From a virus (lineage: Duplodnaviria > Caudoviricetes): a DNA stretch of 58,181 nt. Position numbers and translations under genes: made by a program. Shown here one piece after another: positions 5,994 to 40,265 of the stretch. Position 1 is the stretch's first letter, and every line of letters starts with the position of its first letter. The stretch covers positions 1-58,181 of the IMG/VR virus record IMGVR_UViG_3300043429_000067. One strand, given 5' to 3'. A model generated the notes under the pieces. That model did no database searches, was not told the DNA's origin, and saw only the letters and a program-made list of their open reading frames with translations.

Positions 5994-8687
5994 ATGAGCA
6001 AATACGCAGGGAACATTATCACCACCGGCGCTGATGCGGGGTACTCTGTCTACTTTGATGGGACCGGGGATTATCTACAGTCTACTACGGCGGCCTTATC
6101 AGGCGCGTTTACTATCGAATTTTGGTACTACAGGGTAGGCACTGGTAGCAACTATTGTTTTACCGTAGGGGACTCGATTACTTCTACCGGCATAGAAGTC
6201 TATATCGGTACAAGCGGCACCGTATTTAATGCTATCTACAGTAACGGTGCGGCGCAAGTAACATCTACTACGCAAGTCCCTACAGCTAACGGTTGGTCCC
6301 ATATAGCTTTAGTCAGAGAAGGGGCTAACGTAATTAAATGTTATCTAAACGGTGTGCAAGTCACCGGCTCTTACACTTCATCTGCAACATTTAATAGTGT
6401 TGTACGTATTGGCGCAGAGTACTATAACGGGAATATTACCGGAAGTGCTAATGCGTATATCTCTAATTTTAGGATTGTTAATGGTACTGCGTTGTATACC
6501 GCAGCGTTTACTCCGCCGACTCAGTTATTAGCTATTACAAACACCAGTCTGCTGACATGTAACTCCCCGGCTATTATCGATCAGAGCAGTAACGCATTTG
6601 CGATTACTGCCAACGGTGATGCTAAGGTTAGTCCGTTCACGCCTTTTGCTGGCTACCAAGTATACAAACCAGAACTTGGTTCCGCGACGCCCGGCGTATG
6701 GACGCTCAGTGAAGCACTGCAAGCCAAGCAGACCCGCCAGTGGAATATGTACGACCCCTATTTCCGAGACACGGTGTTGGCGTTGCGTAGTGGTACAGTA
6801 GATGGAGCACAGAATAACTCTTTCGTAGATAGTTCATCTACTGGGTATTCTGTTGTTCGGAATCCTACGACTGGGCCTAATGCACCTACACAGGGTACAT
6901 TCACTCCGTTTAGTCCAACAGGCTGGTCGGTGTACACAAACTCTGATCGGCAGAGTTGGGTGTCAGTATCAAGTGCATCACTGGCATTGGGTACAGGTGA
7001 CTTCGAGATTTCGTTTTATATGTATTACATTAACGGCACCTATATCATGGGTACCGGCAATACTAGCGGCTCTTGGGCGTTCACCAGTGATGGCTCGTTT
7101 AGGCGGAATACACTAGCGTCCGACTTTATTAGCGGTGGAGTAACTGCACGTACATGGGCGAAGATTCGATGTGTACGTATATCTAGCGTTACTTACTTGT
7201 ACGTTAATGACGTACTACGTGGGTCAGCAGCGGATACCCAGAACTACACAAACTCTAATTTGGGTATAGGTAACTTCACCCAAGCCGCTGGCGGCTCGCC
7301 TAACTTTGCGTCTGAAGTTTATATCTCGAACCTGAAGATTGTTAAGGCTGGTACGACCATACTGGATACATTTAGGAACAATCGGTATATCGACAACAGT
7401 CCTACTCCACTGACTGTTACACCTAACGCTAACGCTACTTATCTACCGCCGTTTGTTGTTCCGTACACGCTGACCAACCCGGATGCTGCGTACTCTCCTG
7501 CGGTACATGGCGGTAGCGGCTACTTTGATGGTACTGATGATTACCTAAGTATCACTACTGCTGCGACTAATTATTACTCCGCACTTGGGGAATGGACATG
7601 GGAAGCATGGATATACCCGTTGTCTTTTAGTGGACCACAATACTCATGCGCGATTCTAGCGAGTTCGTTAGACAGTATGTTATTACGCGCTGATGTAACA
7701 ACTGCTATATCTACCACACTCAATATGTACGCTATTAACTCCTCCAATGGCGCGATATTGGGTGCATCCGGTACTAGCGCGGGTACACTCCGTCTTAATG
7801 AATGGGCGCACGTAGTTGTGCAGCGCCGCGCTGGCGAGTTCGATCTATTTATTAATGGCTCTCGTGTTGCTAATGTAAACACACAAACGGCCACAGCTAT
7901 TAGAACAACTGATACAGACCTATGGATAGGTAAAGGTAACGCTGGTACAAGCCCGTTCTGGAATGGGTATATATCGGATGTACGTATACAGAACGGTAGT
8001 GCTAAATATTCAGGAACTACCTATACGGTACCAACTGCCCCCTTGTCCCCTACAGGTGCAGCAGTAAAACTCAGCTTCACCAACGCTGCGATCTTTGATA
8101 CCACCGGTAAGAACGTATTAGAGACTGTAGGTAACGCGCAATCTAGTGTTGCCCAGAAGAAATATGGCCCTACGGCTATGTACTTTGATGGCACGGGGGA
8201 TTATCTATTACCTAGAACGAACAGTATAGGAGCCTTTGGCTCTGGCGATTTTACAATCGAGTTTTGGATAAACTTTGTTACGGTGTCGTCCGCCCAAATT
8301 ATCTTGGACTTTAGGACTGCTACATCTACAGTAGCTCCTGCGATCTCACTTAAAAACACCGGCGTAATCTATTACTACACGGGTGGCGGAAGCCCCGGCG
8401 AGCGCATAACCGGCTCTACTTTATCTGCAGGAACGTGGTACCACGTTGCGGTTTGTAGATCGAGCGGAAGTACAAGGATGTTTGTAAACGGCGTTCAAGT
8501 AGGATCGACGTATACAGACACTAATGTTTATGTTGGGGCTGCTAACCGCCCTTGGGTCGGGGGATTAGCAGATGGGACGACCCCAGCGCAATGGCTAAAC
8601 GCCTATGTAAGTGATTTACGGATAACTCGTTTTGCTCGTTATAAAGCGAACTTTACTCCACTAACTTCAAGAATTCAGGATCAGTGA
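5994..8687 (+). CDS. LamG/concanavalin-A-like multidomain tail (receptor-binding) protein
   Basis: About four LamG modules with the same motifs; paralog of upstream gene. Confidence 0.8.
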   Translation: MSKYAGNIITTGADAGYSVYFDGTGDYLQSTTAALSGAFTIEFWYYRVGTGSNYCFTVGDSITSTGIEVYIGTSGTVFNAIYSNGAAQVTSTTQVPTANGWSHIALVREGANVIKCYLNGVQVTGSYTSSATFNSVVRIGAEYYNGNITGSANAYISNFRIVNGTALYTAAFTPPTQLLAITNTSLLTCNSPAIIDQSSNAFAITANGDAKVSPFTPFAGYQVYKPELGSATPGVWTLSEALQAKQTRQWNMYDPYFRDTVLALRSGTVDGAQNNSFVDSSSTGYSVVRNPTTGPNAPTQGTFTPFSPTGWSVYTNSDRQSWVSVSSASLALGTGDFEISFYMYYINGTYIMGTGNTSGSWAFTSDGSFRRNTLASDFISGGVTARTWAKIRCVRISSVTYLYVNDVLRGSAADTQNYTNSNLGIGNFTQAAGGSPNFASEVYISNLKIVKAGTTILDTFRNNRYIDNSPTPLTVTPNANATYLPPFVVPYTLTNPDAAYSPAVHGGSGYFDGTDDYLSITTAATNYYSALGEWTWEAWIYPLSFSGPQYSCAILASSLDSMLLRADVTTAISTTLNMYAINSSNGAILGASGTSAGTLRLNEWAHVVVQRRAGEFDLFINGSRVANVNTQTATAIRTTDTDLWIGKGNAGTSPFWNGYISDVRIQNGSAKYSGTTYTVPTAPLSPTGAAVKLSFTNAAIFDTTGKNVLETVGNAQSSVAQKKYGPTAMYFDGTGDYLLPRTNSIGAFGSGDFTIEFWINFVTVSSAQIILDFRTATSTVAPAISLKNTGVIYYYTGGGSPGERITGSTLSAGTWYHVAVCRSSGSTRMFVNGVQVGSTYTDTNVYVGAANRPWVGGLADGTTPAQWLNAYVSDLRITRFARYKANFTPLTSRIQDQ

Positions 8688-16543: not shown

Positions 16544-18628
16544 ATGGCTGTGTCTTTAGGAAGTCTTCTCGCCGGTGCCGGAGATATCGGCAAGGCCATG
16601 TACGAGCAGCAAAATACAATGCGGCAGTACGAGCGCGACAAAATTGCGCTGGACGAATTACGCCGTAGTGAAGCACTGCGCCGTGAGATGCTGAACGCCC
16701 CCATGCCGACACAGGTACCGGCGTTTGACTTTGGCGCTGGTGTACCGATGGAGAACATCGCTCCACCTCCTGCTGCTCCGGGCGCTCCTGCCCCTACACC
16801 AGCGGTATCAGATGGCTTTACTGCACTCGACCCCAACAGTCCACAAGCTCGTGCGCTGTACCAGCAGCGGTTTGAGCGGCTACGCGCCGAGCAGTCCAAA
16901 GCTGCAGGTGTGCCGTTGGCTGTTGAAGGTGCACCGAGTCGCGCCGGTATTACTCCTGCTCCGGGCGTCACACAGGTCAATCCAGAAGGTTCGCGCTTTA
17001 CCCAGTGGTATCAAGGTAACACCGCACAGAACCAAGTAACAGCACAACGCCAGAACATCCAGATGTCATTGGTTACTGGTGAGTATGGCGGTCCCGGCTC
17101 TGCCCCGATCCGAAACATCTATGGTTTCTTCGCTGATGATCCCAATACGGCCAAGGCTCGTGAACGTGCAGGGCTTGCTGCTGATTGGTATGGTTCGGAT
17201 ACAGCGGACAAGTACTTCCAGCAGAATCCCAACATGCTGGCGGAAGCACAGAAAGACCCAGTCGGTTTCTATGAGAAGGTATCTAAAGGTCAGAAGGCAC
17301 TGAAGACCGCAGTGGAACCTCAGCCGCTACCTGCCACCAAGAAAGCACTGAAGTACGACCAGACAAAGACCGAGTATGATGATCTGATCATGCAGAGCGC
17401 CCAGCAGTACGGTGTCGATCCTGTGATCTTCAAGCGCCTGATCGGTAGTGAGTCATCGTTTCAAGCTGACCCAACTGCGAACCGTAAGACTGCGCGGGGT
17501 ATTGCCCAGATTCATGTCAACAACATCAAAGCTGGCATGATCAGTCTGCAGGACTCGCTGAATCCGCAAGTAGCTATCCCCTTTGCAGCACAGTTGTTCT
17601 CCCGCTATCTGCAGGAGTCCGGCGGTAGTTATGAACAAGCCCTGCAAAAATACAAAGGCGCAGTGTCGATGCGCGGTAAGCAGTCAATGTCTGGTGTGAT
17701 CAACGATATTCTGTCTGGTACACAAACCCCTGCTGCACCTGTGGCACCACTGGGGGCAAACCAAGTAGCCGCAACAACCGACATCCAGAACCCATTCATA
17801 TCTTCTGCACAGGCCGCAACCCCTGCACCTGCTGCACCTGCTGCACCGGCAGCCGCGCCTACTCGTCAAGCTCAGGCTGATGCTTCATCGTTCTATCTAG
17901 CCAACCCGCAGTCAATCCCGATGGATATGCAACGCGCCAACCAGATGCGGGATGAGATGGCACGACTGGCCACGATGTACCAACGATCTGGTATGGGCGC
18001 TCAATATATGGAAGCCCGTATGAAGGTACTTGAGTTGGACAACAACATGACCTATCTGCAGGGTATGCAGGGGCTCCAAGAATTCTCTCTTGCCAACGAC
18101 CCTCGTCGCCTTGCTGCTGTATGGAGCCAGTACGCTGGTGTGCCGGTGGGTATTCAGCCGCGTAGCGATGGTACGTTCAACATCATCGTCAACGGTAAGA
18201 AGACTAAAGAAGGTATCAGTGCTTCTGACATCTCAGACGCTGCCCGCTCCGCATTCGACCAGACTTATCGCCAGCAGAAAGCTGAGACGGCTAAGACTAT
18301 GGGCATCGAAAGCTTCAAGAAGCAACTCGACGCACAGGTGGAAGCTGTCAAGCAGAACGCTCAGATGATCCGCGAAGCCACGGTCGAAGCTATCAAGGGT
18401 CGCAACAAGGTCATGGAGGTTCGCCTTGGCCGCGAGGACTTCGAGATCAAACCGATCGGAGATGGCACTGCTCGTGCATGGGTATCCAACAAGGCTGGCA
18501 CTGCGCTTGGTATGATCGATGCCAACACCGGGCAGTTCGTAGAGATGGACGGTTTGAAGATTCCCAAGCCGCCGACTTACACAGGAGTTCGTGGCGCTCC
18601 CGCTGGCGTATCCGGAAACGTGAGGTAA
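16544..18628 (+). CDS. Internal virion/ejection protein 2 with lytic transglycosylase (SLT) domain
   Basis: YGVDP..LIGSESS, ARGIAQI, AAQLFSRYL..GGSYEQALQKY motifs. Confidence 0.75.
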   Translation: MAVSLGSLLAGAGDIGKAMYEQQNTMRQYERDKIALDELRRSEALRREMLNAPMPTQVPAFDFGAGVPMENIAPPPAAPGAPAPTPAVSDGFTALDPNSPQARALYQQRFERLRAEQSKAAGVPLAVEGAPSRAGITPAPGVTQVNPEGSRFTQWYQGNTAQNQVTAQRQNIQMSLVTGEYGGPGSAPIRNIYGFFADDPNTAKARERAGLAADWYGSDTADKYFQQNPNMLAEAQKDPVGFYEKVSKGQKALKTAVEPQPLPATKKALKYDQTKTEYDDLIMQSAQQYGVDPVIFKRLIGSESSFQADPTANRKTARGIAQIHVNNIKAGMISLQDSLNPQVAIPFAAQLFSRYLQESGGSYEQALQKYKGAVSMRGKQSMSGVINDILSGTQTPAAPVAPLGANQVAATTDIQNPFISSAQAATPAPAAPAAPAAAPTRQAQADASSFYLANPQSIPMDMQRANQMRDEMARLATMYQRSGMGAQYMEARMKVLELDNNMTYLQGMQGLQEFSLANDPRRLAAVWSQYAGVPVGIQPRSDGTFNIIVNGKKTKEGISASDISDAARSAFDQTYRQQKAETAKTMGIESFKKQLDAQVEAVKQNAQMIREATVEAIKGRNKVMEVRLGREDFEIKPIGDGTARAWVSNKAGTALGMIDANTGQFVEMDGLKIPKPPTYTGVRGAPAGVSGNVR

Positions 18629-18632
18629 CAAC

Positions 18633-21600
18633 ATGGCACAGGCTGGACTGTCGTTCGCTAACCCGTTCATGGAAAAGACGAGTGTTGGCGAACCTGCTAA
18701 CCCCTATGCACCGTTCAGTCCTACATCATCCATCGGGATGGGTGGGCTCGGTCCTTCACTCGCTGACATGGCCGTCACCGGCCAGCAACTTATAAAGCAA
18801 AGTCAGTTCACTCTCCCTGAGTTCACCCGCCCACCCGCTGGCGCATCGATCGCATTTAGCCCGGCTGAGAAGAAAGTCTTTGTCAACGGGCTGACGTTCG
18901 ACGTAGATGATGCAACCTCCGCGCTGCAGTCTGAATCCTATATGCGTGGTCCCGGCACGGGACTCCCCAAAGGGGGCGACTGGGTTCCACTGGATGAAGG
19001 CACCTATGCACAGTATCTCGACGCCATTCGTAACCCTACTCTGGGACGCCTCGCAAGTAAGAATTTCGGGCGCGGTGTTGATGTTATGCAGTCTCTGGCT
19101 GGCCGGGCGCTGCAACTGGCGGGTGCTGAGGGACTGGGCGGTCGTATTGTCGCCGCGCAAGAGGCTGATCTGCGTAAGACAGCGCCTTATGAACGCCAGT
19201 TCACGGATATTGAATCGGGTCGCGGCGCTGTTGAGTGGCTGGTGGCTAACTTCGCACAGCAAGGACCCAACCTTATTGAATCTGTTGCGACTGCTGGACT
19301 GGGTTTCTTGGCTGGTACTGCTGTTGGCGGTCCTGCCGCTGGTGTGTCTGCTGCTTTCTCTGGCCTTCTAGGTAAGTCCGCATGGAAGGAATCCGTCAAA
19401 GCTGCACTGAAGAAGCAAGCCGCTGGTGAAGCACTGGACGCTGCAGAATCCAAGCTGATCAGGGAAGCCGCCGGTATCGCTGGCGCTGTTGCTACGTCCT
19501 ACGCACAGAATCTGGCCACGGGTGCCGCCGACATCTACGGTGAGTTGCGTGACCAAGGCGCTGATGCTGGTGATGTGGATGCTCGACTGAAGGCACTGGC
19601 AGGTTCCGTCCCGTACGCCGTCCTTGAGACACTGCCTGAATACCTGCTGGCCGGTCGTATCTTCAGCGGTATGGGTGCTCCACGGGCTATGGCTCCGGGC
19701 GCTTCGTTGGGTCGTCGTGGTGCTGAGTTGCTGCGCCGTGGCGCAGTCGGTGGTGTTGTCGGTGGTACGGCTGAAGGTGCCACGGAAGCTGGTCAGGAAG
19801 CTCTGTTGCTGGGTATATCTGGCCAAGACCTGTCCTCTCCTGAAGCCGTCAACCGGCTGATCAACTCGTTCGCTGCGGGCTTCGGCGTTGGTGGTCCGAT
19901 CGGCGCTGTGGCCAACCTGAAGGGTAAAGCTCCAGCCAACCTGTTGAACCCCGGCCAGACAACCGACCCGTCTCCTGAGCAACAGAATCCCCCGCCCGGT
20001 GGTCCGCTTGCCCCTGTGGCACCTGCGTCCCCGTTCGGCTTTACACAGCCCATGCCGCCCGCTCCGGGTGCTCCTGCTGCTCTCCCCGGTGGTGCTCCTG
20101 CTGCGCCCGCACTTGGCGCTCCTGTGACTGCTCTGCCTGCTGATCAGGCCATTATGGTGACTGGACAGGAACCGCTCCCGTCGGGTCCCGGCACTCAGGG
20201 TGTGCTGAATATCTTTGGACCTGAAGGTGTGTCGGCACAGGAGTTGGCAACCCGTATGCAGCCCCCGGCTGCTCCTGCTCCCCAGCCCGCAGCACCTGCT
20301 GCACCTACTCCGCAGCCCGGCCAAATGGCATTGCAGTTTGCCCCACCGGTACCGGGCGCAGAAGCTCCGTTCAATCCGCAGATGGCCAATCAGATGCAGG
20401 CCATCCAGCAACGCATTCAGCGGCAGCGTGAGTTCGAGATGGCTCAGGCACAGGCGGCTGCCCAGCAGCAAGCTCAGATGGATCAGATCGCACGACAGAG
20501 CCAGAACGCCCGTGATCTATACATCCTGCAGCAACAACAGGCGGCAGCCGCTGTACAGCCGTCCCCGCAACAACTTCCAAGAGTTCCTGCTACCCCGGCG
20601 GAGCCTGTGCAGTTACCGTTGTTCACACCCAAGCAAGCCCCACGTCCGTCACGTGGCGAGGGTCTGCGTAAAGGTGGCCGCGCAGCGGCGCTTCCTCCGA
20701 CTGGTGTACCGGCTGTACAACCACGTGTTGACCTGCGTCGTTCGCCACAACTTCCGCTGTTTACACAGGAAGGCCAGCCGTCGTTGGCAGCACTGCGAGC
20801 CGCAGGTGTGAAGGGCAAACTTCCAAAACCTACACTGGAGAAGGGTGCCAAGCAGATCAAGCCAACAGGCAAGGCTGTAACACCTGCCACGGTTGAGAAG
20901 GCCAAGGCAGATCGACTGGCTGCTATCAAGGCAGCTTCTGAGAAACTCAAAGCGAAGGGGAAAGAAGATGCCGCTCAAAAAGGGAAGCAGCAACAAGGTG
21001 GTGTCAGCCAACGTCAAGAAGATAATGGACGAGTACAAGGCGGGCGGCAAGCTGGGGAACAGCCCAAGGCCGAAGTCCAAAAAGGCGGCGCTGAAACAGG
21101 CCGTCGCGGCGAGCCTCTCAAGCGCGGGGCGCAGCAAGAAACCTTAACCGACAGGTTAAAAGCTCGTATTGCTAAAGGCGCTTTCGGGGGACCGACCCCA
21201 AAAAAAGTCGGGGCGGCGGTAGCCGCCGTTGAGGTCGAAGCTCTCCCACCGGCTGAAGCGTGGGAAGACATGAAGCCTGAAGGTGCACCAGCATACAACG
21301 CCCTGACACGCGCTGCCCAGCAGGAATGGGCGGGCGCACCTGCTCGTACTATGGCTTTGGCAGAGAAGCTGGCTGCTGGCGAGACAACGATCGAGGAGCG
21401 CGAGCCGACTGCCGCTGAGATACTTGCTGAGGAAATCCAAGCTGCTGAGGAAGCCACCGACATCCGGACATTCCGCGATGCTATCCAGACGGTGATGGAG
21501 TATGCGTTCTTCACCAACGAAGAAACCAACACCAAGAAACTCGTAGCCCAAGCACAAGCGTTCCTCGATAACACCCAGTTCTCACTGGAACAGATGGGCG

Positions 21601-24600
21601 CAATGGATCAGGCGTTCTTGGATGCTGCGCAGTATCGACTCACGCTGGATGCAACCTACACCCGTGGCGGTAAGAAAGACCAGCCCAAGCCGTGGTTTTC
21701 CTACGCGCTGGCACGTAACCTGCTGCCCAGTATCAAAGCCAAACTGATCAACCTGCCCGCTGTTTACAAGGCCGCTGCTCCCGCTGGCGAGAAGACGATG
21801 AAAGCTGGTGCGCCTAGCACAGCCAGCCGCATTACGAGCACACCACAGGAGTTGCTTGGTGAACTGATCAGTGATCTGATCACGCAGATTCGTGAAGTGT
21901 CCAACCTGAACGCGCCGATGAAGTTCCGTGGCGAGACGTATACCAACCTTGTTGATCTGGCCAAGCAGTTGTATGCCAAGGTGGACGCGGCTGGGAAAAA
22001 CTTCATCGTTCGTGGGTATAAACTCAGTGAGTACTTCAAGGCTGACGGCACACCCAAGACACTGAAGTCCGGTGGTCGCGTCATCATTACCAATAAGGAA
22101 CTGACTGCCGAACAGCAAGCCGAGTTGGAAAAGCAACAACGCGCCGAGAAGAAAGCAATGGCCGCCGAGCGCCGTGCCGCAGCACAGGAAGAATTCAACC
22201 GCACTGTGTCGCCCGAGGAAGATGCTTGGGACAATGACGATGGCCGCTTCTACCGTGATGATGGCAGCCCGATCAACACAACGGTGCCCATCGGTCGTGT
22301 CAAGATTCTGGTCAACAGCTTCCTGTCCAAGCTGCGCATGAAGCCAACCGTTGGTGTGTACGCCAATGTCGAAGACCTGCGCCGCCGCAACCCCAAGCTG
22401 TACGAACAGGCAGCCGCTGCTCGTGGTAATGGTGACTTCGGTACTGTCAAGGCTGCTGGCTATTCGTTCGGTAAAAACGTCCTGATCTTCACCGACTTCA
22501 TCCGTACTGAACAACAACTGAAGTTCATCCTTGCCCACGAAACACTGGGTCACTTTGGATTCAGGGGCATCATGCCAGCAGCACAACTGGACAAGGTGCT
22601 GAACCGTATCTACGAGGTTGACCCAGATGTCCGCGCCGGTGTGGACGCAATGATGCAAAGCCGTGGCCTTCCGAAGTCAGAGGCCATCGAAGAATATTTG
22701 GCAGACAACGCCGCTGATCTGGATGTGTCCATCGTGACCCGCATCTGGAATGCACTGAAGAACTTCCTGAACAAGCTGGGCATCACGTTCCAAGACGACG
22801 AGGCTCGGTACTTCATCAACCAAGCTCGCAAGTATGTGCGCCGTGGTGACACTGGTAACTACGTCAACGCCCGTACGCTTGTGGAGGATATGGAGCAACT
22901 CGATGCGGACAGAAATGATGGCCGTTACGCTACTGCTCCTATTGGTGATCTGGCTTCACGTGCATTTACTGCTGGCGCTCTGAACCGTAGGCACGGTGGT
23001 ACAGGTGGACTGGCTGGCGCAGCACAGGCATTTGTTGATGGGGTATTCGGTGCCCGGCGTAATGTGCCCGGCAAGGTTGCCTCCATCCTTGAACAGATAC
23101 AGACACTGGACAATAAGGCACGTCGTAGCTACGGCCTGAACCAGATATATCGGATGCTGGAAAAGCAACAGCAGTTCTCCCGCGCATTGCTGTCGAAGTA
23201 CCAACGCATGACTCAGTTCACCCACTCGCCTGATCTGTTTGGTCTGGGTAAAGGTGTGACAGAAGCTCAGAAAGAATCTGCTGGTGAGTTGCTGGCTCGT
23301 GCCGCCTTGCTCCGTGCGGCTGCTGCGACGGATGAAGCAATCAAGTCGTATGACTCTCTGGTATCTGTTGACGACATGGGTAATGTCACGGTCAATCCAC
23401 TGGTGCGTCAGCAGATCGAGCAAGCAGGTTTTGTTACCGCCGAGGAGTTCCGCAAGGGCTTTGACGTCGAGTACTCCAACGGTGAGAAGGTGCGCTTCCA
23501 GTTCGACGTGGACGAGAACAGCCCTGAGTGGAAGGTGTATCTGGAAACCCGTGATACGGTCAACGAAGCTGCCATCGATCTGATGCTGGCTAACTACGAA
23601 GCTGCACAGGCCGAGGGCAAACGGGTTGTTGGTGATCTGAACAACCAGCGCACTACCACCAACAAGTTTACGAACGATGATCTGGATGCTATCCGGCGTG
23701 CAGCGGAACTGTATAAGAACAAGCGGTACCAAGGTAGTGACGTGGCAAGTGCTGGTGTAGAGGTAAAGAAAGCGGCTGCCAAGGATTCGGAGGAGTTCAT
23801 CATTGCGTTCGGTCGTGCGCTGTTCAACGATGATGTGTACAAGGTGTGGGTGAAAGACCCGACCGCCAGCGCAGAGATTGCCAAGGACTTTGAGAAGTTC
23901 ATGGCTGCTGAGTACGACGATCTCCGCGCTGCCCTGCCAAGTCTGCGCTCCAAGATTCGCAACGAGAACGACTCGTTCGCTGTACAGAAGGCAGTGCGCG
24001 ATCTATTCATGTTCGACCTGCAGTCCAAGAACGCAGACTATTACGCCAAGCGTACTATCCTTGGCTCGTATGTACCGTTCGTACGCCGTGGTACTGAGCA
24101 GGTTCGATTGGTGGCAGTGGATGCAAACGGCAACACGGTTAAGCTGGACGAGAATATCCGCAGCACCCTGCCGTACTTCCACACTGACACCCGTTCCGAA
24201 GCAGAGGCTATCGCGGCTGATCTGGAGAAAGAGTTCGGTGACCAAGAGTTCACTATGCTGGACGATACCGGCGCAGAGGTTAAGGTACGCTTGATCACTG
24301 AGGTGTCGAAGAACCGACAGTCGCCTGACCTGACTGAAGCCGTGAACTTTAACGAGTTCGTGTACGTACTGAACAGGCTCAACGCCAACATTGCTCCGGA
24401 CGTACGCGAGAAGATCATCACGACACTGACCAACCAGAACAGTCGTGCTCGTCGTAACCTGCAGCGTTCCGGTACCGAGGGATGGGATAAGGATGTGATC
24501 CGCTCTGTGTCCGAGCACCTTGAGACATCTGCCCACGTAGCAGCCAAGAAACTCTATCGCCATCGACTGGACGATGTGCTGCTGGATAACCGCAACTGGC

Positions 24601-26474
24601 TGGGCGATGATCAGAAACTGAAAGACCTGAAGGATGCTGTAGCCAACGCGCAGACTGACGGTGAGCGGGCACGTGCGCAACGTGCCTACGATGAGTATGC
24701 GTACATGTACAGATACATGGCTGGTAGCACCGGCAAGCGTACTGTCACGATCGATGGCGAAGAAGTACCCACGCTGGGTCGTGGCGAAGATTATCGGGAA
24801 GAAGCCAAGCAGGTGCTGCGCTGGTACAGTGAGGCCACCAATATCACCGACTCCACTGAGGATATGCTCTCGGGTGAGGCTGGCTCTGCACTGAAACTGG
24901 CAACCGTCCTGATGCAACTCGGTGGCTCCGTGGCTACAGCGGTGATCAACTTGGCTTCGATGGCTACCCACAGTCTGCCGTACCTGTCCTACTACAACTC
25001 CAAGCGTGGCTTCGGTGGTGGATACGGTGAGTCCAAGGCTGCGTCTGCTCTGTTCCAAGCGGCTCGTGATGTGAAGAACCGCAACCTGTCCGAAGCTGCG
25101 TTCCTGAACGACATACTGCGTGAAGGTACGTACGACAGGTACAACCTGACAGAAGATGAAGCACAGTTCCTGTTCCAGCAGACTGAGGAAGGCACACTGC
25201 AAGCAGCCCAGTTCAACGCACTGGTGGGTACCGCTCGTGGCAAGGTGTTCAACAACAAGGCTCAGGCTGCGATCAAGCTCTGGATGGAGATGTTCTCCTA
25301 CACGGAACAGTTCAACCGCCGCGTAACCGCTCTGGCTGCGTACCGCTTGGAGAAGGAACGTGCACTGGCGCAGGGTCTGACCGAGGAGCAAGCCATCCGT
25401 GCTGCTACCGAAGCTGCTCGCACTGCCGTCAATACTGCTCAGGGTGAGTATGCGATGTTCAACCGCCCTGAGATGGCTCGCGGTAACGTACTGCAATACG
25501 TGTTCATGTACAAACAGTTCGTGATCGTTACAGTCCAGTTGATGCGCAGCTTGCCGGTCAAGGGTCAACTGATGATGCTGGGCTTCCTGCTGCTGACTTC
25601 TGGTCTGAAGGGTCTGCCGTTTGCAGAAGATATATTCGACATCGTTGACACCATAGCTCAAAAGCTGGGCTTGAAGATGGCCAGTGTGGAGAAGGAAATC
25701 ACTGAGTGGGTTGACAGCGTGGCTCCGGGTATGACCCCGTATCTGATGCGTGGTGTACTCGACCGGATGACTGGTGCCACGATGTCTACCCGTCTGGGTA
25801 TGGGTGATTTGGTGCCACTGACTGGTGCGTTCCGCGCTGGTGCTGACCCGGCTCGTGAAGTGTCTGACTTCGCTGGCCCTGTGTTCTCTGGTATCTCTGG
25901 TCTGGTAGGTATGGCTGGCAGCCTCGGTAAGTACGGTGCGGAAGTGATCGGTCTGCGGGATGATGTGACTACCATCAACGGTATCCTGCGTGACTCTCCG
26001 GTTGCGGCTCTACGTGCGATGGGTGACAGCTACGCTTACCTGAACAGCGGAATGATTACCAACGCTCAGGGACAAGTTGTACAGCGTGAAGCACCCTACC
26101 ACGTGATCCTTGCCCGACTGCTGGGCTTCTATCCGGCCATTGCTTCTGAGCAGAACGACATCGTGCGGCTGTCCAAGTACGTCGGTGACTATGCCAAGGC
26201 GATCAAGGCTGAGTATGTCAGTGCGTACGTCAAGGCAACACTGTCGGGTGATCGTGAACGTGCACGGGAGATTGCAGCCGCAGTGCAGGAGTGGAACCAA
26301 GGTGCTGAGGGTACGGGGCTTACTATCCGTACGTTTGAGAAAGATGCTGCACGTGCAGCCTTGGAAGCCGGTCGGCCTACAGCACTCAGGTATCTCCGTT
26401 CAGCACCCAAGCAGATGCGTCCGGAGACAATCGAGTTGCTGCAAGCCTATGGCCTGTACGACGAGATCAGGTAA
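18633..26474 (+). CDS. Giant internal virion/ejection protein (2613 aa, polyvalent-protein-like) with zincin-like motif
   Basis: Last gene of late arm; LAHETLGHFG...EEYLAD motif; Pro/Gln-rich linker. Confidence 0.7.
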   Translation: MAQAGLSFANPFMEKTSVGEPANPYAPFSPTSSIGMGGLGPSLADMAVTGQQLIKQSQFTLPEFTRPPAGASIAFSPAEKKVFVNGLTFDVDDATSALQSESYMRGPGTGLPKGGDWVPLDEGTYAQYLDAIRNPTLGRLASKNFGRGVDVMQSLAGRALQLAGAEGLGGRIVAAQEADLRKTAPYERQFTDIESGRGAVEWLVANFAQQGPNLIESVATAGLGFLAGTAVGGPAAGVSAAFSGLLGKSAWKESVKAALKKQAAGEALDAAESKLIREAAGIAGAVATSYAQNLATGAADIYGELRDQGADAGDVDARLKALAGSVPYAVLETLPEYLLAGRIFSGMGAPRAMAPGASLGRRGAELLRRGAVGGVVGGTAEGATEAGQEALLLGISGQDLSSPEAVNRLINSFAAGFGVGGPIGAVANLKGKAPANLLNPGQTTDPSPEQQNPPPGGPLAPVAPASPFGFTQPMPPAPGAPAALPGGAPAAPALGAPVTALPADQAIMVTGQEPLPSGPGTQGVLNIFGPEGVSAQELATRMQPPAAPAPQPAAPAAPTPQPGQMALQFAPPVPGAEAPFNPQMANQMQAIQQRIQRQREFEMAQAQAAAQQQAQMDQIARQSQNARDLYILQQQQAAAAVQPSPQQLPRVPATPAEPVQLPLFTPKQAPRPSRGEGLRKGGRAAALPPTGVPAVQPRVDLRRSPQLPLFTQEGQPSLAALRAAGVKGKLPKPTLEKGAKQIKPTGKAVTPATVEKAKADRLAAIKAASEKLKAKGKEDAAQKGKQQQGGVSQRQEDNGRVQGGRQAGEQPKAEVQKGGAETGRRGEPLKRGAQQETLTDRLKARIAKGAFGGPTPKKVGAAVAAVEVEALPPAEAWEDMKPEGAPAYNALTRAAQQEWAGAPARTMALAEKLAAGETTIEEREPTAAEILAEEIQAAEEATDIRTFRDAIQTVMEYAFFTNEETNTKKLVAQAQAFLDNTQFSLEQMGAMDQAFLDAAQYRLTLDATYTRGGKKDQPKPWFSYALARNLLPSIKAKLINLPAVYKAAAPAGEKTMKAGAPSTASRITSTPQELLGELISDLITQIREVSNLNAPMKFRGETYTNLVDLAKQLYAKVDAAGKNFIVRGYKLSEYFKADGTPKTLKSGGRVIITNKELTAEQQAELEKQQRAEKKAMAAERRAAAQEEFNRTVSPEEDAWDNDDGRFYRDDGSPINTTVPIGRVKILVNSFLSKLRMKPTVGVYANVEDLRRRNPKLYEQAAAARGNGDFGTVKAAGYSFGKNVLIFTDFIRTEQQLKFILAHETLGHFGFRGIMPAAQLDKVLNRIYEVDPDVRAGVDAMMQSRGLPKSEAIEEYLADNAADLDVSIVTRIWNALKNFLNKLGITFQDDEARYFINQARKYVRRGDTGNYVNARTLVEDMEQLDADRNDGRYATAPIGDLASRAFTAGALNRRHGGTGGLAGAAQAFVDGVFGARRNVPGKVASILEQIQTLDNKARRSYGLNQIYRMLEKQQQFSRALLSKYQRMTQFTHSPDLFGLGKGVTEAQKESAGELLARAALLRAAAATDEAIKSYDSLVSVDDMGNVTVNPLVRQQIEQAGFVTAEEFRKGFDVEYSNGEKVRFQFDVDENSPEWKVYLETRDTVNEAAIDLMLANYEAAQAEGKRVVGDLNNQRTTTNKFTNDDLDAIRRAAELYKNKRYQGSDVASAGVEVKKAAAKDSEEFIIAFGRALFNDDVYKVWVKDPTASAEIAKDFEKFMAAEYDDLRAALPSLRSKIRNENDSFAVQKAVRDLFMFDLQSKNADYYAKRTILGSYVPFVRRGTEQVRLVAVDANGNTVKLDENIRSTLPYFHTDTRSEAEAIAADLEKEFGDQEFTMLDDTGAEVKVRLITEVSKNRQSPDLTEAVNFNEFVYVLNRLNANIAPDVREKIITTLTNQNSRARRNLQRSGTEGWDKDVIRSVSEHLETSAHVAAKKLYRHRLDDVLLDNRNWLGDDQKLKDLKDAVANAQTDGERARAQRAYDEYAYMYRYMAGSTGKRTVTIDGEEVPTLGRGEDYREEAKQVLRWYSEATNITDSTEDMLSGEAGSALKLATVLMQLGGSVATAVINLASMATHSLPYLSYYNSKRGFGGGYGESKAASALFQAARDVKNRNLSEAAFLNDILREGTYDRYNLTEDEAQFLFQQTEEGTLQAAQFNALVGTARGKVFNNKAQAAIKLWMEMFSYTEQFNRRVTALAAYRLEKERALAQGLTEEQAIRAATEAARTAVNTAQGEYAMFNRPEMARGNVLQYVFMYKQFVIVTVQLMRSLPVKGQLMMLGFLLLTSGLKGLPFAEDIFDIVDTIAQKLGLKMASVEKEITEWVDSVAPGMTPYLMRGVLDRMTGATMSTRLGMGDLVPLTGAFRAGADPAREVSDFAGPVFSGISGLVGMAGSLGKYGAEVIGLRDDVTTINGILRDSPVAALRAMGDSYAYLNSGMITNAQGQVVQREAPYHVILARLLGFYPAIASEQNDIVRLSKYVGDYAKAIKAEYVSAYVKATLSGDRERAREIAAAVQEWNQGAEGTGLTIRTFEKDAARAALEAGRPTALRYLRSAPKQMRPETIELLQAYGLYDEIR
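20968..21147 (+). CDS. Nested small basic protein (59 aa) in +1 frame of giant gene
   Basis: GAAGGGG upstream of ATG; MPLKKGSSNKVVSANVKKIM...KQAVAASLSSAGRSKKP resembles a widespread stand-alone phage peptide family. Confidence 0.6.
   Translation: MPLKKGSSNKVVSANVKKIMDEYKAGGKLGNSPRPKSKKAALKQAVAASLSSAGRSKKP
21186..21232 (+). promoter_or_regulatory. Candidate -1 ribosomal frameshift signal
   Basis: GGGGGA, A7 run (A_AAA_AAA in frame), 5-nt spacer, GGCGGC-ggta-GCCGCC hairpin, TGA in -1 frame at 21230. Confidence 0.5.
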
Positions 26475-33531: not shown

Positions 33532-34188
33532 TCAAACCAATGCAGAATCACAATCGTGTCGGGCTGGGCAATAGCGACATAGCCCACTGGGTCTGGCTGG
33601 CCAGCTATCGTGCTCCAAGGAACTGTGTATCCGCTGGATACGCTTCATGATCTCTGCCCATATCTCGTTGATGTTCACCCGGTTGTACGTCTCGGTGTCC
33701 ATCTCCATTGTCTTCAGCCATACAAGACTGGTCTTTACCCGTTGCACCTCGGGGCAATGCTTGAATACTTGCGCTGCAAACATCTGCATCTGGAAGAAGT
33801 CAGGCTTGCGCTTGCCGGTCTTCCAATCCATCACCACAGCGTCATGACCCTTGATTATCAAGATGTCAAGTTTACTGCGTAACCATGCGTCCGCGTCCCA
33901 CCAACCTGTTGGTGTAAGGTTTTCGGTCAGCGTCATCTCCCGCTCGACATGCAACTCCCCACCCGCAGCAGCCTTCTCGACTGACTTACACAGTGGTTCG
34001 TACATCGCCGCCTCAGTGGGTAAATCCGACCCTTTCAGTCGGCTTTCAAGGAAGGCATGTATACGTTCACCATACTTGCTGGCTTCGCCGCCCTCATCGA
34101 TGATGTCTTTGGCAACTCGCTGCCGGTAGTACCTGTACGGACACTGCTCGTACAACTTGATTGACGAATAGGAATGTGCAAGGCGCAT
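33532..34188 (-). CDS. Cas4/RecB-like PD-(D/E)XK exonuclease
   Basis: SYSSIKLYEQCP, LD, DWKTGK, QM..A, CRYCP...C; start reassigned to MRLAHS. Confidence 0.85.
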   Translation of the reverse strand: MRLAHSYSSIKLYEQCPYRYYRQRVAKDIIDEGGEASKYGERIHAFLESRLKGSDLPTEAAMYEPLCKSVEKAAAGGELHVEREMTLTENLTPTGWWDADAWLRSKLDILIIKGHDAVVMDWKTGKRKPDFFQMQMFAAQVFKHCPEVQRVKTSLVWLKTMEMDTETYNRVNINEIWAEIMKRIQRIHSSLEHDSWPARPSGLCRYCPARHDCDSALV

Positions 34189-34240
34189 AGGTTGTCGCCC
34201 CAAGGGTGCCCTTGGGGTATCAGATATTGGAAAGGCCAGT

Positions 34241-34480
34241 TTACTCCACTTCCTGCATACGTTGCAAGCTGTCGTATTTGAGTAGCTCGATGGCACCAAC
34301 AAGCTGTACCAGATCGTCCACACCAGTGGTCATTCGCCGCCAGCTATCGCCAATCTTCATCATGACGACTGCTTCAGTAGCATCGTCACCTGATTCACGT
34401 ACACGTTGGATAGCAGCCTCCAACATCTCGATCACATCTTTGTTACGCGGTTCACGTTTGATTTCTTTCAGGTTGCTCAT
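34241..34480 (-). CDS. Hypothetical protein
   Basis: 79-aa ORF in operon. Confidence 0.55.
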   Translation of the reverse strand: MSNLKEIKREPRNKDVIEMLEAAIQRVRESGDDATEAVVMMKIGDSWRRMTTGVDDLVQLVGAIELLKYDSLQRMQEVE

Positions 34481-38714: not shown

Positions 38715-38992
38715 TTAATTCCCATCCTATAACGTGCAGTCATCGCTACACACAAGTCCTCTACGGTGTCGAACTTTATCCACGGTGAACCGGGAGATGA
38801 TATCTTCGCAGCGTACTGTACCTTCATGTTGTACATCTCTGGGTTGTACTCAATCTGCTTTGCCATCTTGAATGCAGGGTACCAGTCCAGCTTGTCAGCA
38901 TTCCACCAGTTGACACGCACCTCCCATTCCGTACCACTGAGATGGTGCCTGTCACGCTTGTGTATAGCAAACCCTTCGGGTAGCCGTATCAT
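38711..38992 (-). CDS. Hypothetical protein
   Basis: ATGA-coupled ORF. Confidence 0.55.
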   Translation of the reverse strand: MIRLPEGFAIHKRDRHHLSGTEWEVRVNWWNADKLDWYPAFKMAKQIEYNPEMYNMKVQYAAKISSPGSPWIKFDTVEDLCVAMTARYRMGIK

Positions 38993-40146
38993 TTCATCAT
39001 CACCACTTCACCAAACGGTGCCTTGTCACGATAGTTGGATACCCACAGCACAGGGCAATCGGGCTCATCACCGAACGAGTCACAGCACAAGTCAGTCAGG
39101 AACACACAAGCTACCGGTTCGATCTGGTGCTCACGCATGTACTCGAACACTGGTGCAAAGTCTGTACCGCCACCGCCATGTGGCTTGATGTCCAGTGAAT
39201 CATCACGCTCATACGACTCGTAGTGGCATACCTCACTGTCGAAATAGATAACGTGTATCTTGGATGGGTTCATATCATCCTTGACGAACTGTATCTCGGC
39301 AGCGAACTGGTTGATCTCACGCTGTCCAATCGAACCGGAGCAGTCAACAGCGAACACAAGCTCACCCAACTGTTCACCACTGACACTGGGCAGATAGATT
39401 CCTTGTGACATAAAGCGACGATTCGGTCGTGCCCATGAACGGCTGTCAGTCTTGGCCTTCTGTACGAACTTACGCAGCACATCCCGCCAGTCAACGGCAG
39501 GTTGCAGCACCTCATCTACCAGTCGTCGCATGTTCTGAGATAGCTTGCCCATCATCTTCGCTGCCTGTGCAGCCTGCGCAACAGCTACCTTCAACTCAGC
39601 TTGTTGCTGTGCCTGTTCAGCCGGAGAACCATCAGCATCTTCGCAGTCATCTAGCGGACCGCCGGGTTCACCAGCACCGCTACCATCACCGGGCATATCA
39701 GGCAGGACGTTGTAGATACCGTCAGCAGTACCACCACCTGCGTTATAGATGTTCCTATCCAGCAGCCCCTGCTTTGGCATCTTGCCGATGTTCTCGTCCG
39801 ACAGTAACTGGTTGATCACATAGTCACCGGCCATGTTCCATCGCTTTGCTTGCCGCCCGTTACGCCGGAAGATATGCTCAAGCATAGGGTGAAAGCACTC
39901 GTGTGCTGCAAGGAACTTAACCTCCTCGTCAGTCAGCGTATCCAGAAAGTCAGGATTGAATACCACCCGCTTGCCATTGGTTGCTGCCGTAGGTACATGT
40001 CGGCTTAACTCAAACGGCATACGCATGGCGATACTACCGATGAACGGATGCTCCAGTATCAGGCTGGTCTTTGCTTTAGCCAAACGGATACGGTTCTTCT
40101 CCGCTTCCTGCGGAGTAATTTCTTTTGTCTCGATTACTGTAGTCAT
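38989..40146 (-). CDS. HExxH metallopeptidase plus VWA domain protein (DUF2201-like)
   Basis: TAATNG, AHECFH, DCSGS MIDAS, GGGGTDF, FLTD; GGAGG RBS. Confidence 0.85.
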   Translation of the reverse strand: MTTVIETKEITPQEAEKNRIRLAKAKTSLILEHPFIGSIAMRMPFELSRHVPTAATNGKRVVFNPDFLDTLTDEEVKFLAAHECFHPMLEHIFRRNGRQAKRWNMAGDYVINQLLSDENIGKMPKQGLLDRNIYNAGGGTADGIYNVLPDMPGDGSGAGEPGGPLDDCEDADGSPAEQAQQQAELKVAVAQAAQAAKMMGKLSQNMRRLVDEVLQPAVDWRDVLRKFVQKAKTDSRSWARPNRRFMSQGIYLPSVSGEQLGELVFAVDCSGSIGQREINQFAAEIQFVKDDMNPSKIHVIYFDSEVCHYESYERDDSLDIKPHGGGGTDFAPVFEYMREHQIEPVACVFLTDLCCDSFGDEPDCPVLWVSNYRDKAPFGEVVMMK

Positions 40147-40265
40147 AAGTCCTCCACGCATTCACGTACATACTCTCGCGCCCCTTCAAAGGCAACGATA
40201 ACCATAGCGATAGGCAACATGAACCATGCCATCACGCCAGTAACTACTGCGATTACTTTACTCAT
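40143..40265 (-). CDS. 40-aa hydrophobic peptide (not in ORF track)
   Basis: MSKVIAVVTGVMAWFMLPIAMVIVAF...; ATGA coupling. Confidence 0.45.
   Translation of the reverse strand: MSKVIAVVTGVMAWFMLPIAMVIVAFEGAREYVRECVEDL

Follow-up and report, generated by a model that had tools for sequence, protein, structure and literature searches.

Does a giant phage protein, probably carried in the capsid, bear docking sites for the sliding clamp of its bacterial host? The question arises from a 2613-aa open reading frame (ORF) in the window, by which we mean the whole 58,181-nucleotide stretch of viral DNA (Caudoviricetes) that was analysed, and more precisely from a Pro/Gln-rich linker in its product, in which the string QLPLF occurs twice. 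Clamp-binding motifs (CBMs) with the consensus QL[S/D]LF are carried by cellular Pol II, Pol III alpha, Pol IV, Pol V, Hda and MutS/MutL, and a preliminary description of this DNA had read the two strings, together with two upstream variants, as clamp-binding-like motifs in a virion ejection protein. No paper that connects CBMs with proteins of the virion, with ejection proteins or with polyvalent proteins came up in a literature search. The conserved motifs described below suggest that an injected phage protein docks on a replication hub of the host, and that the linker is probably a multivalent docking site for the host clamp.

Results

Setting and architecture of the giant protein

The giant ORF lies directly downstream of an ORF with an SLT domain, which likely encodes an internal virion protein, within a block of genes on the + strand. 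The features of this region are:

16544..18628, + strand: upstream neighbour, 694 aa, with a lytic transglycosylase (SLT) domain (PF01464, E 3.1e-08, aa 281-372)
18633..26474, + strand: giant ORF P0001, 2613 aa, probable internal virion or ejection protein (ORF and translation)
18633..19952, + strand: conserved N-terminal domain, aa 1 to about 440, Gly/Ala-rich (most conserved part of the 120-sequence alignment)
19953..21242, + strand: Pro/Gln/Ala-rich linker, aa 441-870, carrying the motifs (composition, alignment and model)
20376..20555, + strand: aa 582-641, a long predicted helix rich in Gln that separates site B from site C (residues 183-242 of the model)
20808..21242, + strand: Lys/Arg-rich low-complexity stretch, aa 726-870 (K+R 0.22)
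22272..22784, + strand: putative zincin-like metallopeptidase domain, HExxGH at nt 22536-22553 (invariant columns, weak matches)
24069..26333, + strand: C-terminal PLxRFG ('tail-700') domain, aa 1813-2567 (NCBIfam NF032893, E 8.2e-59)

A search with the giant protein returned 326 homologs at E<=1e-3. No family was found at E<=0.01 in a Pfam scan of the entire protein, which detected no methyltransferase, helicase or LPD domain, and a profile built from 21 full-length homologs had no match among PDB sequences at E<=1. Against the phage collection, megablast of the gene gave no match and tblastn of the protein matched only the C-terminal PLxRFG domain, where the giant proteins of F116-like phages and of some others are 26-28% identical to it. 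This domain scored 199.7 bits against NF032893 (about 680 residues, curated cut-off 100), its region matches PHROGs 11358 and 21376, and its hydropathy peaks lie at aa 2086-2111, 2286-2331 and 2413-2431. None of the literature matches listed for PLxRFG dealt with function. One homolog of the domain, gp60 of phage H66, is annotated as 'verified by mass spectrometry as part of the virion'; from this homolog and the position of the gene we infer that the giant protein is probably a capsid-carried ejection protein. Its copy number in the virion is probably low.

The N-terminal domain contains two moderately hydrophobic segments, with hydropathy peaks at aa 214-232 and 409-427, and is also encoded, together with the linker, as a separate ORF of about 930 aa in other phages. 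Conserved islands separated by indel-rich sequence make up the linker in the alignment. That this linker is disordered, as had been proposed, agrees with its composition (P 0.14, Q 0.13, A 0.18) and with an AlphaFold2 model of aa 400-900, mostly coil, in which 309 of 501 residues have pLDDT <50, which is modest evidence of disorder since the alignment of 8 sequences used here is shallow and can by itself lower pLDDT. The motifs lie in coil in this model, with block pLDDT of about 36-53. The Gln-rich helix between sites B and C was modelled with block pLDDT of 83-93 and is possibly a coiled coil. The Lys/Arg-rich stretch is gap-rich and weakly conserved, part of it is helical in the model, and it possibly binds DNA.

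Elsewhere in the window the phage encodes its own Pol A, a DUF927 primase-helicase and an SNF2 helicase. Neither dnaN nor tRNA genes were found in the window, and a host search by scanning genome contigs matched only two MAG contigs of about 2 kb. These replication genes and the lack of a phage dnaN, together with the absence of QLxLF from the other ORFs (below), count in favour of a clamp of the host as the target.

Four motif sites in the linker

The four strings, all in the frame of the giant ORF, are:

20196..20216, + strand: site A, QGVLNIF, aa 522-528 (conserved island; outside the CBM definition)
20322..20339, + strand: site B, QMALQF, aa 564-569 (borderline hexameric CBM-like string)
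20610..20624, + strand: site C, QLPLF, aa 660-664 (matches the canonical pentameric clamp-binding motif)
20748..20807, + strand: site D, QLPLF, aa 706-710 (nt 20748-20762), with a conserved flank to aa 725 (alignment and model)

In the excerpted text of a review, CBMs are defined as Q-aliphatic-x-[L/M]-[F/L] or Q-aliphatic-x-[L/M]-x-[F/L], the best clamp binders are QLxLF, and position 3 is tolerant, with Asp slightly preferred (PMC11139829). Sites C and D fit the pentamer exactly. The clamp-binding label that the preliminary description gave to all four strings therefore holds for the two QLPLF copies and is borderline for site B, which agrees with the hexamer only when Met is allowed as an aliphatic residue (the family consensus is QGALQF); it fails for site A, which fits neither form.

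The tandem pair stands well above its compositional expectation: two QLxLF were observed vs 0.041 expected from the amino-acid composition of the giant protein and 0.0044 expected in aa 440-900, and for exact QLPLF 0.0022 were expected in the giant protein. The two copies are written in different codons (CAG TTA CCG TTG TTC vs CAA CTT CCG CTG TTT), which argues against a recent duplication of DNA. In a set of 72 ORFs picked greedily from the window (18,661 aa), no ORF other than the giant one contains QLxLF, and one other (33532..34323) holds the looser QMQMF. A phage polymerase as the clamp user was considered and rejected, Pol A and the other ORFs lacking QLxLF.

Conservation among close homologs

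Conservation was read from an alignment of the best 120 of the 326 homologs, the query included. At site C, Q660, L663 and F664 are invariant (120/120), as is P658 (120/120), and L661 is kept in 117/120, while position 3 varies freely (P73 D32 E9 S5 N1) and positions -1 and +1 are variable. Site D is looser in its anchors: Q706 is kept in 120/120, position 2 is L68 V26 G13 I12 A1, L709 is L106 M14, and position 5 is F88 I31 L1. Synonymous codon variation is seen at conserved motif residues across homologs.

Conservation extends beyond the cores. Close homologs keep P670, P672, L678 and R679 beside site C fairly well, and likewise G714, P716, A720 and L721 beside site D, where G714, A720 and L721 are invariant within the flank TQEGQPSxAALRxAG, a pattern likewise compatible with a more extended surface on which some other partner docks. 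Site A has the family form QGVLD[IV]FG, with Q522, G523, V524 and L525 invariant, and belongs to a longer conserved island that extends to AQELAxRMQP. At site B, Q564, L567, Q568 and F569 are invariant.

Enrichment and turnover across the divergent family

A divergent set was formed from 79 full-length representatives of 50% identity clusters, drawn from 150 listed of 268 matches. The interval aa 401-900 of these proteins holds 49 instances of Q[LM]x[LM]F vs 0.61 expected, counts that are not independent events because the representatives share ancestry; outside this interval 5 were observed vs 3.75 expected. Four altered motifs used as controls (reverse, Q>E, Q>N and F>Y) had 0 matches each in the linkers. 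A relaxed motif gave 133 matches in 51 proteins in the same interval, vs a mean of 8.3 matches in 7.9 proteins over 200 shuffles (maxima 18 and 16).

The preliminary description had proposed to check if the motifs survive where the rest of the linker has diverged, and for some of the family they do: within the fixed interval aa 401-900 the strict motif is present in 29/79 representatives and missing from 50/79, and even the relaxed motif is missing from 28/79. Divergent members carry 3-5 copies (e.g. P0152 with 5, P0228 with 4 and P0262 with 3) at shifted positions and with acidic or otherwise unrelated flanks, and such turnover is what would be expected if the target were a conserved pocket of the host.

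Giant proteins of other phages were also inspected. Neither gp60 of Pseudomonas phage H66 (3787 aa) nor the DarB-like protein of Pseudoalteromonas phage Y7 (4513 aa read) contains Q[LM]x[LM]F or Q[LM]xLx[FL], the former having one QxxLxF, and gp084-086 of Rhizobium phage RHph_TM3_14A lack Q[LM]x[LM]F, Q[LM]xLx[FL] and Qxx[LM]F. We therefore rejected the idea that CBM-like motifs are a general trait of ejection or polyvalent proteins.

Predicted complex with DnaN

A structure prediction with the clamp, also proposed in the preliminary description, was run with two copies of E. coli DnaN and aa 648-728 of the giant protein, covering sites C and D. E. coli DnaN served as a stand-in for the clamp of the host. 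The three runs gave ipSAE values of 0.69, 0.70 and 0.72, whereas none of 3 controls scored above 0.00; the mark used was reached by 58/80 solved complexes and 2/110 mismatched pairs, a calibration only roughly valid here. Contact agreement between runs was at least 77% and the pLDDT of the partner at least 54.

The model places one QLPLF in each of the two canonical clefts of the DnaN dimer, a pass that may reflect memory of the many solved clamp-peptide structures. The predicted interface involves residues 172, 174-177, 242, 247, 320, 344, 360 and 362-365 of both DnaN copies, positions that are included among the subsite I and II residues given in the excerpted review (PMC11139829). Site C is modelled against DnaN 172-177, 247, 320, 360 and 362-364 with an expected error of 1.0-1.8 A, and in the region of site D residues 705-710, 714, 716-717 and 719-725 take part in the modelled interface.

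A putative zincin-like region downstream of the linker

Further along the chain, H1302, E1303, G1306 and H1307 of the HExxGH string are invariant in homolog alignments, and the region gave sub-threshold matches to Peptidase_M48 in 9/10 family members (best E 0.0093). Its fold model has a mean pLDDT of 49, and VIA-align placed minimal zincins in its top rows, with Z 5.5 (rmsd 3.5, 71 aligned) followed by Z 5.1 (3.2, 75) and Z 5.1 (3.1, 67), all of them below the level that the tool calls meaningful. On these weak signals the region is at most a putative zincin-like domain, and we do not claim a peptidase.

Discussion

Comparison with known systems

Sites C and D resemble cellular CBMs in matching the pentamer, in conserved anchors with a free position 3, in lying within a region of predicted disorder, and in their modelled docking in cleft subsites I and II of DnaN. 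They differ in their carrier, which is a 2613-aa protein of a phage structural module and no replication or repair enzyme, and in being internal, two to five per linker, and mostly Pro at position 3. Among mobile elements, IS and Tn7 transposases reportedly bind the beta clamp, TnsE of Tn7 being a clamp-binding transposition protein. These too are mobile-element proteins whose CBMs couple their action to replication of the host; in contrast to the giant protein, which would arrive from outside the cell and in which no DNA-processing activity was identified, they act on DNA targets.

A phage parallel is MuC of phage Mu (Mor/C family), which in the excerpted report binds the E. coli clamp via two near-consensus CBMs; it is a 16.5-kDa DNA-binding activator of late transcription, made during infection, with CBMs at both termini, and an over-occupied clamp is toxic to the host (PMC12867686). 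Both are phage proteins with two CBMs (predicted ones here) that exploit, or would exploit, the host clamp, whereas the giant protein is probably pre-packaged and has its candidate CBMs in an internal linker. No homology of the giant protein to Mor/C was detected. Podovirus virions contain giant or 'polyvalent' proteins with a PLxRFG domain (the F116/H66 gp60, DarB-like and phi24B gp47 types), which share with the giant protein its size and this C-terminal domain; homology is limited to the C-terminal 520-750 aa or so, and H66 gp60 and the Y7 DarB-like protein are unlike it in having no CBM-like motif. In the excerpted text of a preprint, phi24B gp47, a large polyvalent protein, is proposed to be an encapsidated ejection protein (10.64898/2026.04.10.717836).

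What the motifs may bind

Overall, binding of the linker motifs to the DnaN sliding clamp of the host is the best explanation, one that the motif pattern and the complex model make reasonably probable. To regard the two QLPLF instead as a functionless chance product of low-complexity Pro/Gln/Leu-rich sequence, one may point out that the motif was picked after the sequence had been seen, so that any single-sequence probability is post hoc, and that low-complexity linkers can repeat short words. This reading is nevertheless hardly credible in view of the excess of QLxLF in the giant protein (2 vs 0.041), the anchors kept in all of the best 120 of 326 homologs through synonymous codon changes, and the 49 matches vs 0.61 expected in the 79 representatives with none for the four altered motifs; nor are the homologs near-duplicates, with identities of 47-83% and representatives from 50% identity clusters.

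A more serious contender takes the likeness of the Q..L.F islands to CBMs as superficial and assigns them to docking or assembly with a partner that the phage itself encodes (the portal, the scaffold, the capsid interior, another ejection protein, or self-association in a trans-envelope conduit). In its favour are the conservation of all four islands, two of which lie outside the CBM definition, and of the flanks of sites C and D in close homologs, the need of the giant protein to enter the capsid and later assemble with partners, and the existence in three other phages of related giant proteins that function with no motif of this kind. Co-evolution with such a partner would be anticipated, but members whose N-domains are only 35-45% identical still carry a Q[LM]x[LM]F core, one that differs among them in position, number and flanks and leaves position 3 free exactly as in CBMs, and in the model both motifs occupy canonical clamp clefts whereas the controls score 0.00; on balance we consider such a partner unlikely. 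The islands might also be true short linear motifs for a different hub of the host, such as another factor with a role in replication, division or proteolysis, or a protein of the periplasm that serves in crossing the envelope. Colicins set a precedent, as envelope-crossing proteins with disordered translocation regions that bear host-binding epitopes, and QGVLD[IV]FG at site A fits no CBM definition. This we hold to be very unlikely, because the motifs match both the CBM definition and the clamp pocket specifically and a literature search found no other bacterial motif class with Q-L-x-L-F anchors, the non-clamp matches being unrelated and eukaryotic.

A model for clamp docking during infection

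Under clamp binding, the giant protein would be packaged in the capsid and ejected along with the DNA. The N- and C-terminal domains, both hydrophobic, would remain at the envelope, and the middle part (the linker, the Lys-rich stretch and the HExxGH domain) would enter the cytoplasm. There the motifs would tether this middle part to host clamps prior to any phage gene expression. The QLPLF pair would occupy both clefts of one clamp dimer in high-avidity bivalent binding, both being reachable at once given the spacing of about 41 residues between sites C and D in a disordered chain, and one or two weaker Q..L.F-type islands would lie upstream of this canonical pair. As to purpose, the preliminary description had suggested that such binding could block host replication or bring the clamp to phage DNA. 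We consider targeting the most likely purpose: an injected protein of low copy number, along with the modules downstream of the motifs, would be led to DNA that is marked by clamps. Competition with host Pol III and Hda for the cleft would be a side effect or a second role. The probably low copy number argues against stoichiometric sequestration of the clamp.

An extension of this model, which we think decidedly improbable, is a clamp-tethered effector, in which the CBMs and the basic stretch would dock on DNA-loaded host clamps within seconds of infection and the HExxGH domain would cleave the clamp or host proteins bound to it, among them the replisome, repair enzymes or defence enzymes that track along DNA. 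A virion protein would in this way take over the replication hub of the host catalytically, ahead of phage gene expression. Its logic would parallel that of SPRTN/Spartan, a eukaryotic zincin protease whose PIP box recruits it to PCNA: the two may share the combination of a clamp-binding short linear motif, a basic DNA-binding stretch and HExxH in one chain, an analogy only, as the peptidase assignment here is weak. If true, such an effector would be common across a family of environmental podoviruses that is itself abundant.

Implications

The clamp cleft has been discussed, in the excerpted review, as an antibacterial target site (PMC11139829), and the tandem motifs, if they bind it, would be a natural bivalent ligand for this cleft. 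Carriers of CBMs already include cellular replication and repair enzymes, transposases and, recently, MuC of phage Mu. If a capsid-packaged protein carries them as well, infection would target the sliding clamp already at its earliest stage, before transcription, and one of the poorly understood giant internal proteins of podoviruses would gain a concrete partner in the host. With hundreds of family members in metagenomes (326 and 268 matches), the result would apply widely.

Genome context and architecture of the giant protein

The virus record looks complete (CheckV estimate 100%) and encodes a family A DNA polymerase, a DUF927 primase-helicase, an SNF2 helicase and a PD-(D/E)XK nuclease, together with a large terminase. 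Its portal, of SU10 type, most resembles those of Rhizobium phage RHph_TM3_14A (35% identity) and of HMO-2011-type marine podoviruses. Neither a dnaN gene nor tRNA genes were found in the window, and a host search of genome contigs matched just two MAG contigs of ~2 kb. Two adjacent large proteins (3897-5990 and 5994-8687, +) contain three concanavalin-like Laminin_G_3 stretches apiece (E 7.5e-53 and 4e-53) and probably serve in receptor binding or as tail fibres. A DUF2201 putative metallopeptidase and VWA-like protein (E 6.6e-46, 2.2e-28) has a weakly matching AAA ATPase in its vicinity (38992-40161, -; 41442-42428, -), a pairing that resembles MoxR/VWA systems; in RHph_TM3_14A, early-region proteins are annotated 'ATPase domain-containing protein' and 'metallopeptidase domain-containing protein'.

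The giant protein, P0001 (2613 aa), is the product of a single very long ORF (18633..26474, +) that directly follows one encoding a lytic transglycosylase domain. A Pfam scan of P0001 gave no family at E<=0.01. The C-terminal third consists of a PLxRFG ('tail-700') domain (NF032893, 199.7 bits vs a cut-off of 100), also matched by PHROGs 11358 and 21376; giant proteins of F116-like Pseudomonas phages, and of a few others, have C-termini 26-28% identical to it. One such relative, H66 gp60, carries the record note 'verified by mass spectrometry as part of the virion', and a 2811-aa polyvalent protein of phi24B is proposed in a preprint (10.64898/2026.04.10.717836) to be an encapsidated ejection protein. 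From these neighbours and relatives we reasonably infer that P0001 is a virion ejection protein; a literature search on 'PLxRFG' yielded nothing on function.

Layout of P0001 (all +)
aa 1-~440: N-terminal domain, well conserved, Gly/Ala-rich, with two moderately hydrophobic segments
aa 441-870: linker, Pro/Gln/Ala-rich, with many indels
aa 522-528, nt 20196: site A, QGVLNIF, in frame
aa 564-569, nt 20322: site B, QMALQF, in frame
aa 582-641, 20376-20555: long confident Gln-rich helix of ~60 residues between sites B and C (AlphaFold2 block, pLDDT 83-93)
aa 660-664, nt 20610: site C, QLPLF, in frame
aa 706-710, nt 20748: site D, QLPLF, in frame
aa ~1215-1385, about 22272-22784: conserved alpha/beta region surrounding an invariant HExxGH
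aa 1813-2567: PLxRFG domain (NF032893), with three hydrophobic stretches

AlphaFold2 modelling of aa 400-900, from an alignment of 8 sequences, left 309 of 501 residues at pLDDT <50 and placed all four sites in coil. The modelled helix at aa 582-641 could form a coiled coil that oligomerises P0001 and multiplies motif valency, and after site D, Lys and Arg make up 22% of aa 726-870. Further downstream, residues H1302, E1303, G1306 and H1307 (22536-22553) are invariant, and Peptidase_M48 gave sub-threshold matches in 9/10 family members (best E 0.0093). The structures nearest to the model of this region (mean pLDDT 49) are minimal zincin-like metalloproteases, all under the tool's meaningful level (Z 5.5, rmsd 3.5, 71 aligned; 5.1, 3.2, 75; 5.1, 3.1, 67); the region is a candidate metallopeptidase module that would enter the cell with P0001. 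Overlapping the linker in other frames are an ORF of 198 aa at 20215..20811 (+) and several of 50-367 aa on both strands (19368-21574). The first may be what was previously called a nested gene; long alternative-frame ORFs are frequent in GC- and Pro/Ala-rich coding sequence.

Motif occurrence above chance

The four motif strings assigned to the giant protein in the preliminary description all lie in its reading frame. QLxLF occurs twice in P0001, whereas amino-acid composition predicts 0.041 occurrences in the whole protein and 0.0044 in aa 440-900; the observation is far above chance. Codons differ between the two QLPLF copies, which rules out a recent DNA duplication. QLxLF is absent from every other ORF of the window (greedy set, 72 ORFs, 18,661 aa). 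The sole other match to Q[LM]x[LM]F among the window's ORFs, QMQMF at aa 178 of the nuclease ORF (33532-34323, -), may be due to chance.

Conservation in close and distant homologs

A word-indexed search with aa 1-1000 returned 326 proteins at E<=0.001, and the first 1150 residues of the best 120, query included (47-83% identity), were aligned with MAFFT.

Residues at sites C and D in the best 120 of 326 homologs
Site C, P658, Q660, L663, F664: invariant, 120/120
Site C, position 2 (661): L117 M2 I1
Site C, position 3 (662): P73 D32 E9 S5 N1
Site C, positions -1 and +1: variable
Site D, Q706: invariant, 120/120
Site D, position 2 (707): L68 V26 G13 I12 A1
Site D, position 4 (709): L106 M14
Site D, position 5 (710): F88 I31 L1

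Strict QLxLF is absent from 2 of these 120 proteins, single in 83 and present twice in 35. Sites A and B are likewise conserved islands (family forms QGVLD[IV]FG and QGALQF). Two things weigh against these counts: flanks of sites C and D are partly conserved too (P670, P672, L678, R679; G714, P716, A720, L721), and the 120 proteins are close relatives. Across nine loci, conserved residues are written with synonymous codons (CAG/CAA, TTA/CTC/CTT/TTG, CTG/CTA/TTG, TTC/TTT), and selection therefore acts on the peptide. A MORN-repeat match (PF02493, precomputed) occurs in 6 of the 120 homologs listed (P0011, P0032, P0038, P0050, P0071, P0099) and is lacking in P0001, which points to variable inserts across the family.

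To reach further, 50%-identity cluster representatives were searched exhaustively with HMMER (query aa 1-1000), giving 268 matches at E<=0.001, of which the best 150 were examined; 79 of these are >=2000 aa. Within aa 401-900 of the 79, Q[LM]x[LM]F was observed 49 times vs 0.61 expected, in 29 proteins, and in the remainder of the same proteins 5 times vs 3.75; the representatives share ancestry, so these counts are not independent events. In the same linkers, the reversed motif and the Q>E, Q>N and F>Y variants each occurred 0 times (0.61, 0.53, 0.24 and 0.26 expected, respectively), Q[LM]x[LM]L 4 times (1.96 expected) and Q[IV]x[LM]F 8 times (0.59 expected). Relaxing the pattern, to either Qxx[LM]F or Q[LM]xLx[LF], gave 133 matches in 51/79 proteins, vs a mean of 8.3 (maximum 18) in a mean of 7.9 proteins (maximum 16) over 200 shuffles. 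Persistence of the motif in divergent linkers, which the preliminary description had put forward as a check, was thus seen in part: in this fixed interval the strict motif is missing from 50/79 and the relaxed one from 28/79.

In divergent members, motif position and copy number shift (five copies in P0152, four in P0228, three in P0262), flanks are unrelated and often acidic, and hexameric forms include QLELDF, QLDLPF and QLELPL; position 3 over the best 150 of 268 representatives is P35 D21 E11 A8 S8 and others. Here the anchors stay fixed, the middle position is free, and sites change in place and number within a disordered linker, as is the way short linear motifs (SLiMs) evolve. Such a pattern is expected for a conserved host pocket, not for a co-evolving phage partner.

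The giant gene also occurs split. In record G001 (of L008; loci L019-L021), the N-domain and motif linker form a separate 928-aa open frame (QLPLF at aa 682, QLPMF at aa 728), and a 1964-aa frame several kb off holds the C-terminal part. Lengths among the best 150 of 268 representatives (P0121-P0270) fall mainly at 600-799 aa (32), 900-1099 aa (15) and 2300-2999 aa (75), the short ones being either complete genes or contig-end fragments. Split forms bear on the earlier idea of a short isoform.

Fit to the clamp-binding motif and model with DnaN

According to a 2024 review (PMC11139829), natural beta-clamp-binding motifs (CBMs) take the forms Q-aliphatic-x-[L/M]-[F/L] and Q-aliphatic-x-[L/M]-x-[F/L], with QLxLF and QLxLxF binding tightest, Gln and the final two hydrophobic residues contributing most, and position 3 tolerant with a slight Asp preference. 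Of the four clamp-binding-like motifs proposed for P0001, sites C and D are exact pentamers and site B is borderline, a loose fit to the hexamer (QMALQF here, mostly QGALQF among relatives); site A fits neither form.

A complex model with DnaN, the beta sliding clamp, as the preliminary description had suggested, was built from aa 648-728, with a 21-row alignment, and a pair of DnaN chains from E. coli that stood in for the host clamp. It scored ipSAE 0.69, 0.70 and 0.72 vs 0.00 for the best of three controls; the calibration mark is reached by 58/80 solved complexes and 2/110 mismatched pairs, counts that apply only roughly here. Runs share >=77% of contacts, with partner pLDDT >=54. The confident interface comprises P0001 residues 656-664, 705-710, 714, 716-717 and 719-725 and, in both DnaN copies, 172, 174-177, 242, 247, 320, 344, 360 and 362-365, which are among the subsite I and II residues named in the review (PMC11139829). 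The lowest-error pairs are Q660 with N320, M362 and M364, and L663 with T172, G174, L177, V247 and V360, so that the modelled contacts of site C show canonical clamp-cleft geometry. The interface lists, naming both copies and both motif ranges, suggest one motif per protomer. Many clamp-peptide complexes have been solved, and passing therefore shows likeness to them, not binding by P0001; clamp binding by the sites is plausible and supported in silico.

Discussion

What the motifs bind has several candidate answers. Chance, to which we give next to no weight, is contradicted by the 120/120 anchors in the best 120 of 326 homologs, by 49 motifs vs 0.61 expected in the 79 representatives and by 133 relaxed matches vs a shuffle mean of 8.3. 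A phage-internal docking or assembly motif would account for the conservation of all four islands and some flanks, and for other giant proteins without the motif, but it leaves unexplained why exact CBM anchors are retained through motif turnover, and we consider it unlikely. That the motifs target a different host hub seems to us very improbable. We lean towards binding of DnaN.

In the picture that we favour, P0001 would be packaged and then ejected, its hydrophobic end domains being held at the envelope with the middle part in the cytoplasm. Sites C and D, ~41 residues apart, would grip both clefts of a single DnaN dimer, with possible extra valency from sites A and B or from a putative coiled coil at aa 582-641. 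Cellular CBMs usually bring low-abundance enzymes to clamp-marked DNA, and P0001 probably has a low copy number in the virion. We therefore think it likelier that the motifs target or tether the downstream modules (the basic stretch, the HExxGH region) than that they sequester clamps stoichiometrically, although Pol III and Hda would still find their clefts blocked by bivalent occupation. Within the DnaN-binding reading, we tentatively regard targeting or tethering as a possible main purpose and cleft blocking as a rather doubtful one, the remainder being clamp binding without a purpose that we can name. The phage replication genes are without QLxLF, which fits a phage polymerase independent of the host clamp.

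IS transposases reportedly bind the beta clamp. Two CBMs are described for MuC of phage Mu (PMC12867686), and T4 turns on late transcription via its own clamp (review, PMC9690074). The CBM class and the use of the host clamp by mobile elements are thus already known. Our literature search, which covered article text without supplements such as the one in which the MuC authors survey Mor/C CBMs, found nothing that connects proteins of the virion, ejection or polyvalent kind with CBMs. A CBM-like motif is absent from H66 gp60, from the DarB-like protein of Y7 and from the giant protein that RHph_TM3_14A encodes in synteny, which rules out the CBM as a general feature of giant proteins. The earlier proposal of a virion ejection protein binding host DnaN multivalently is supported in part, with two canonical motifs, site B borderline and site A outside the definition, and with clamp binding plausible in silico. 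What would be new is a known host-hub SLiM on a new carrier, at a new stage of infection.
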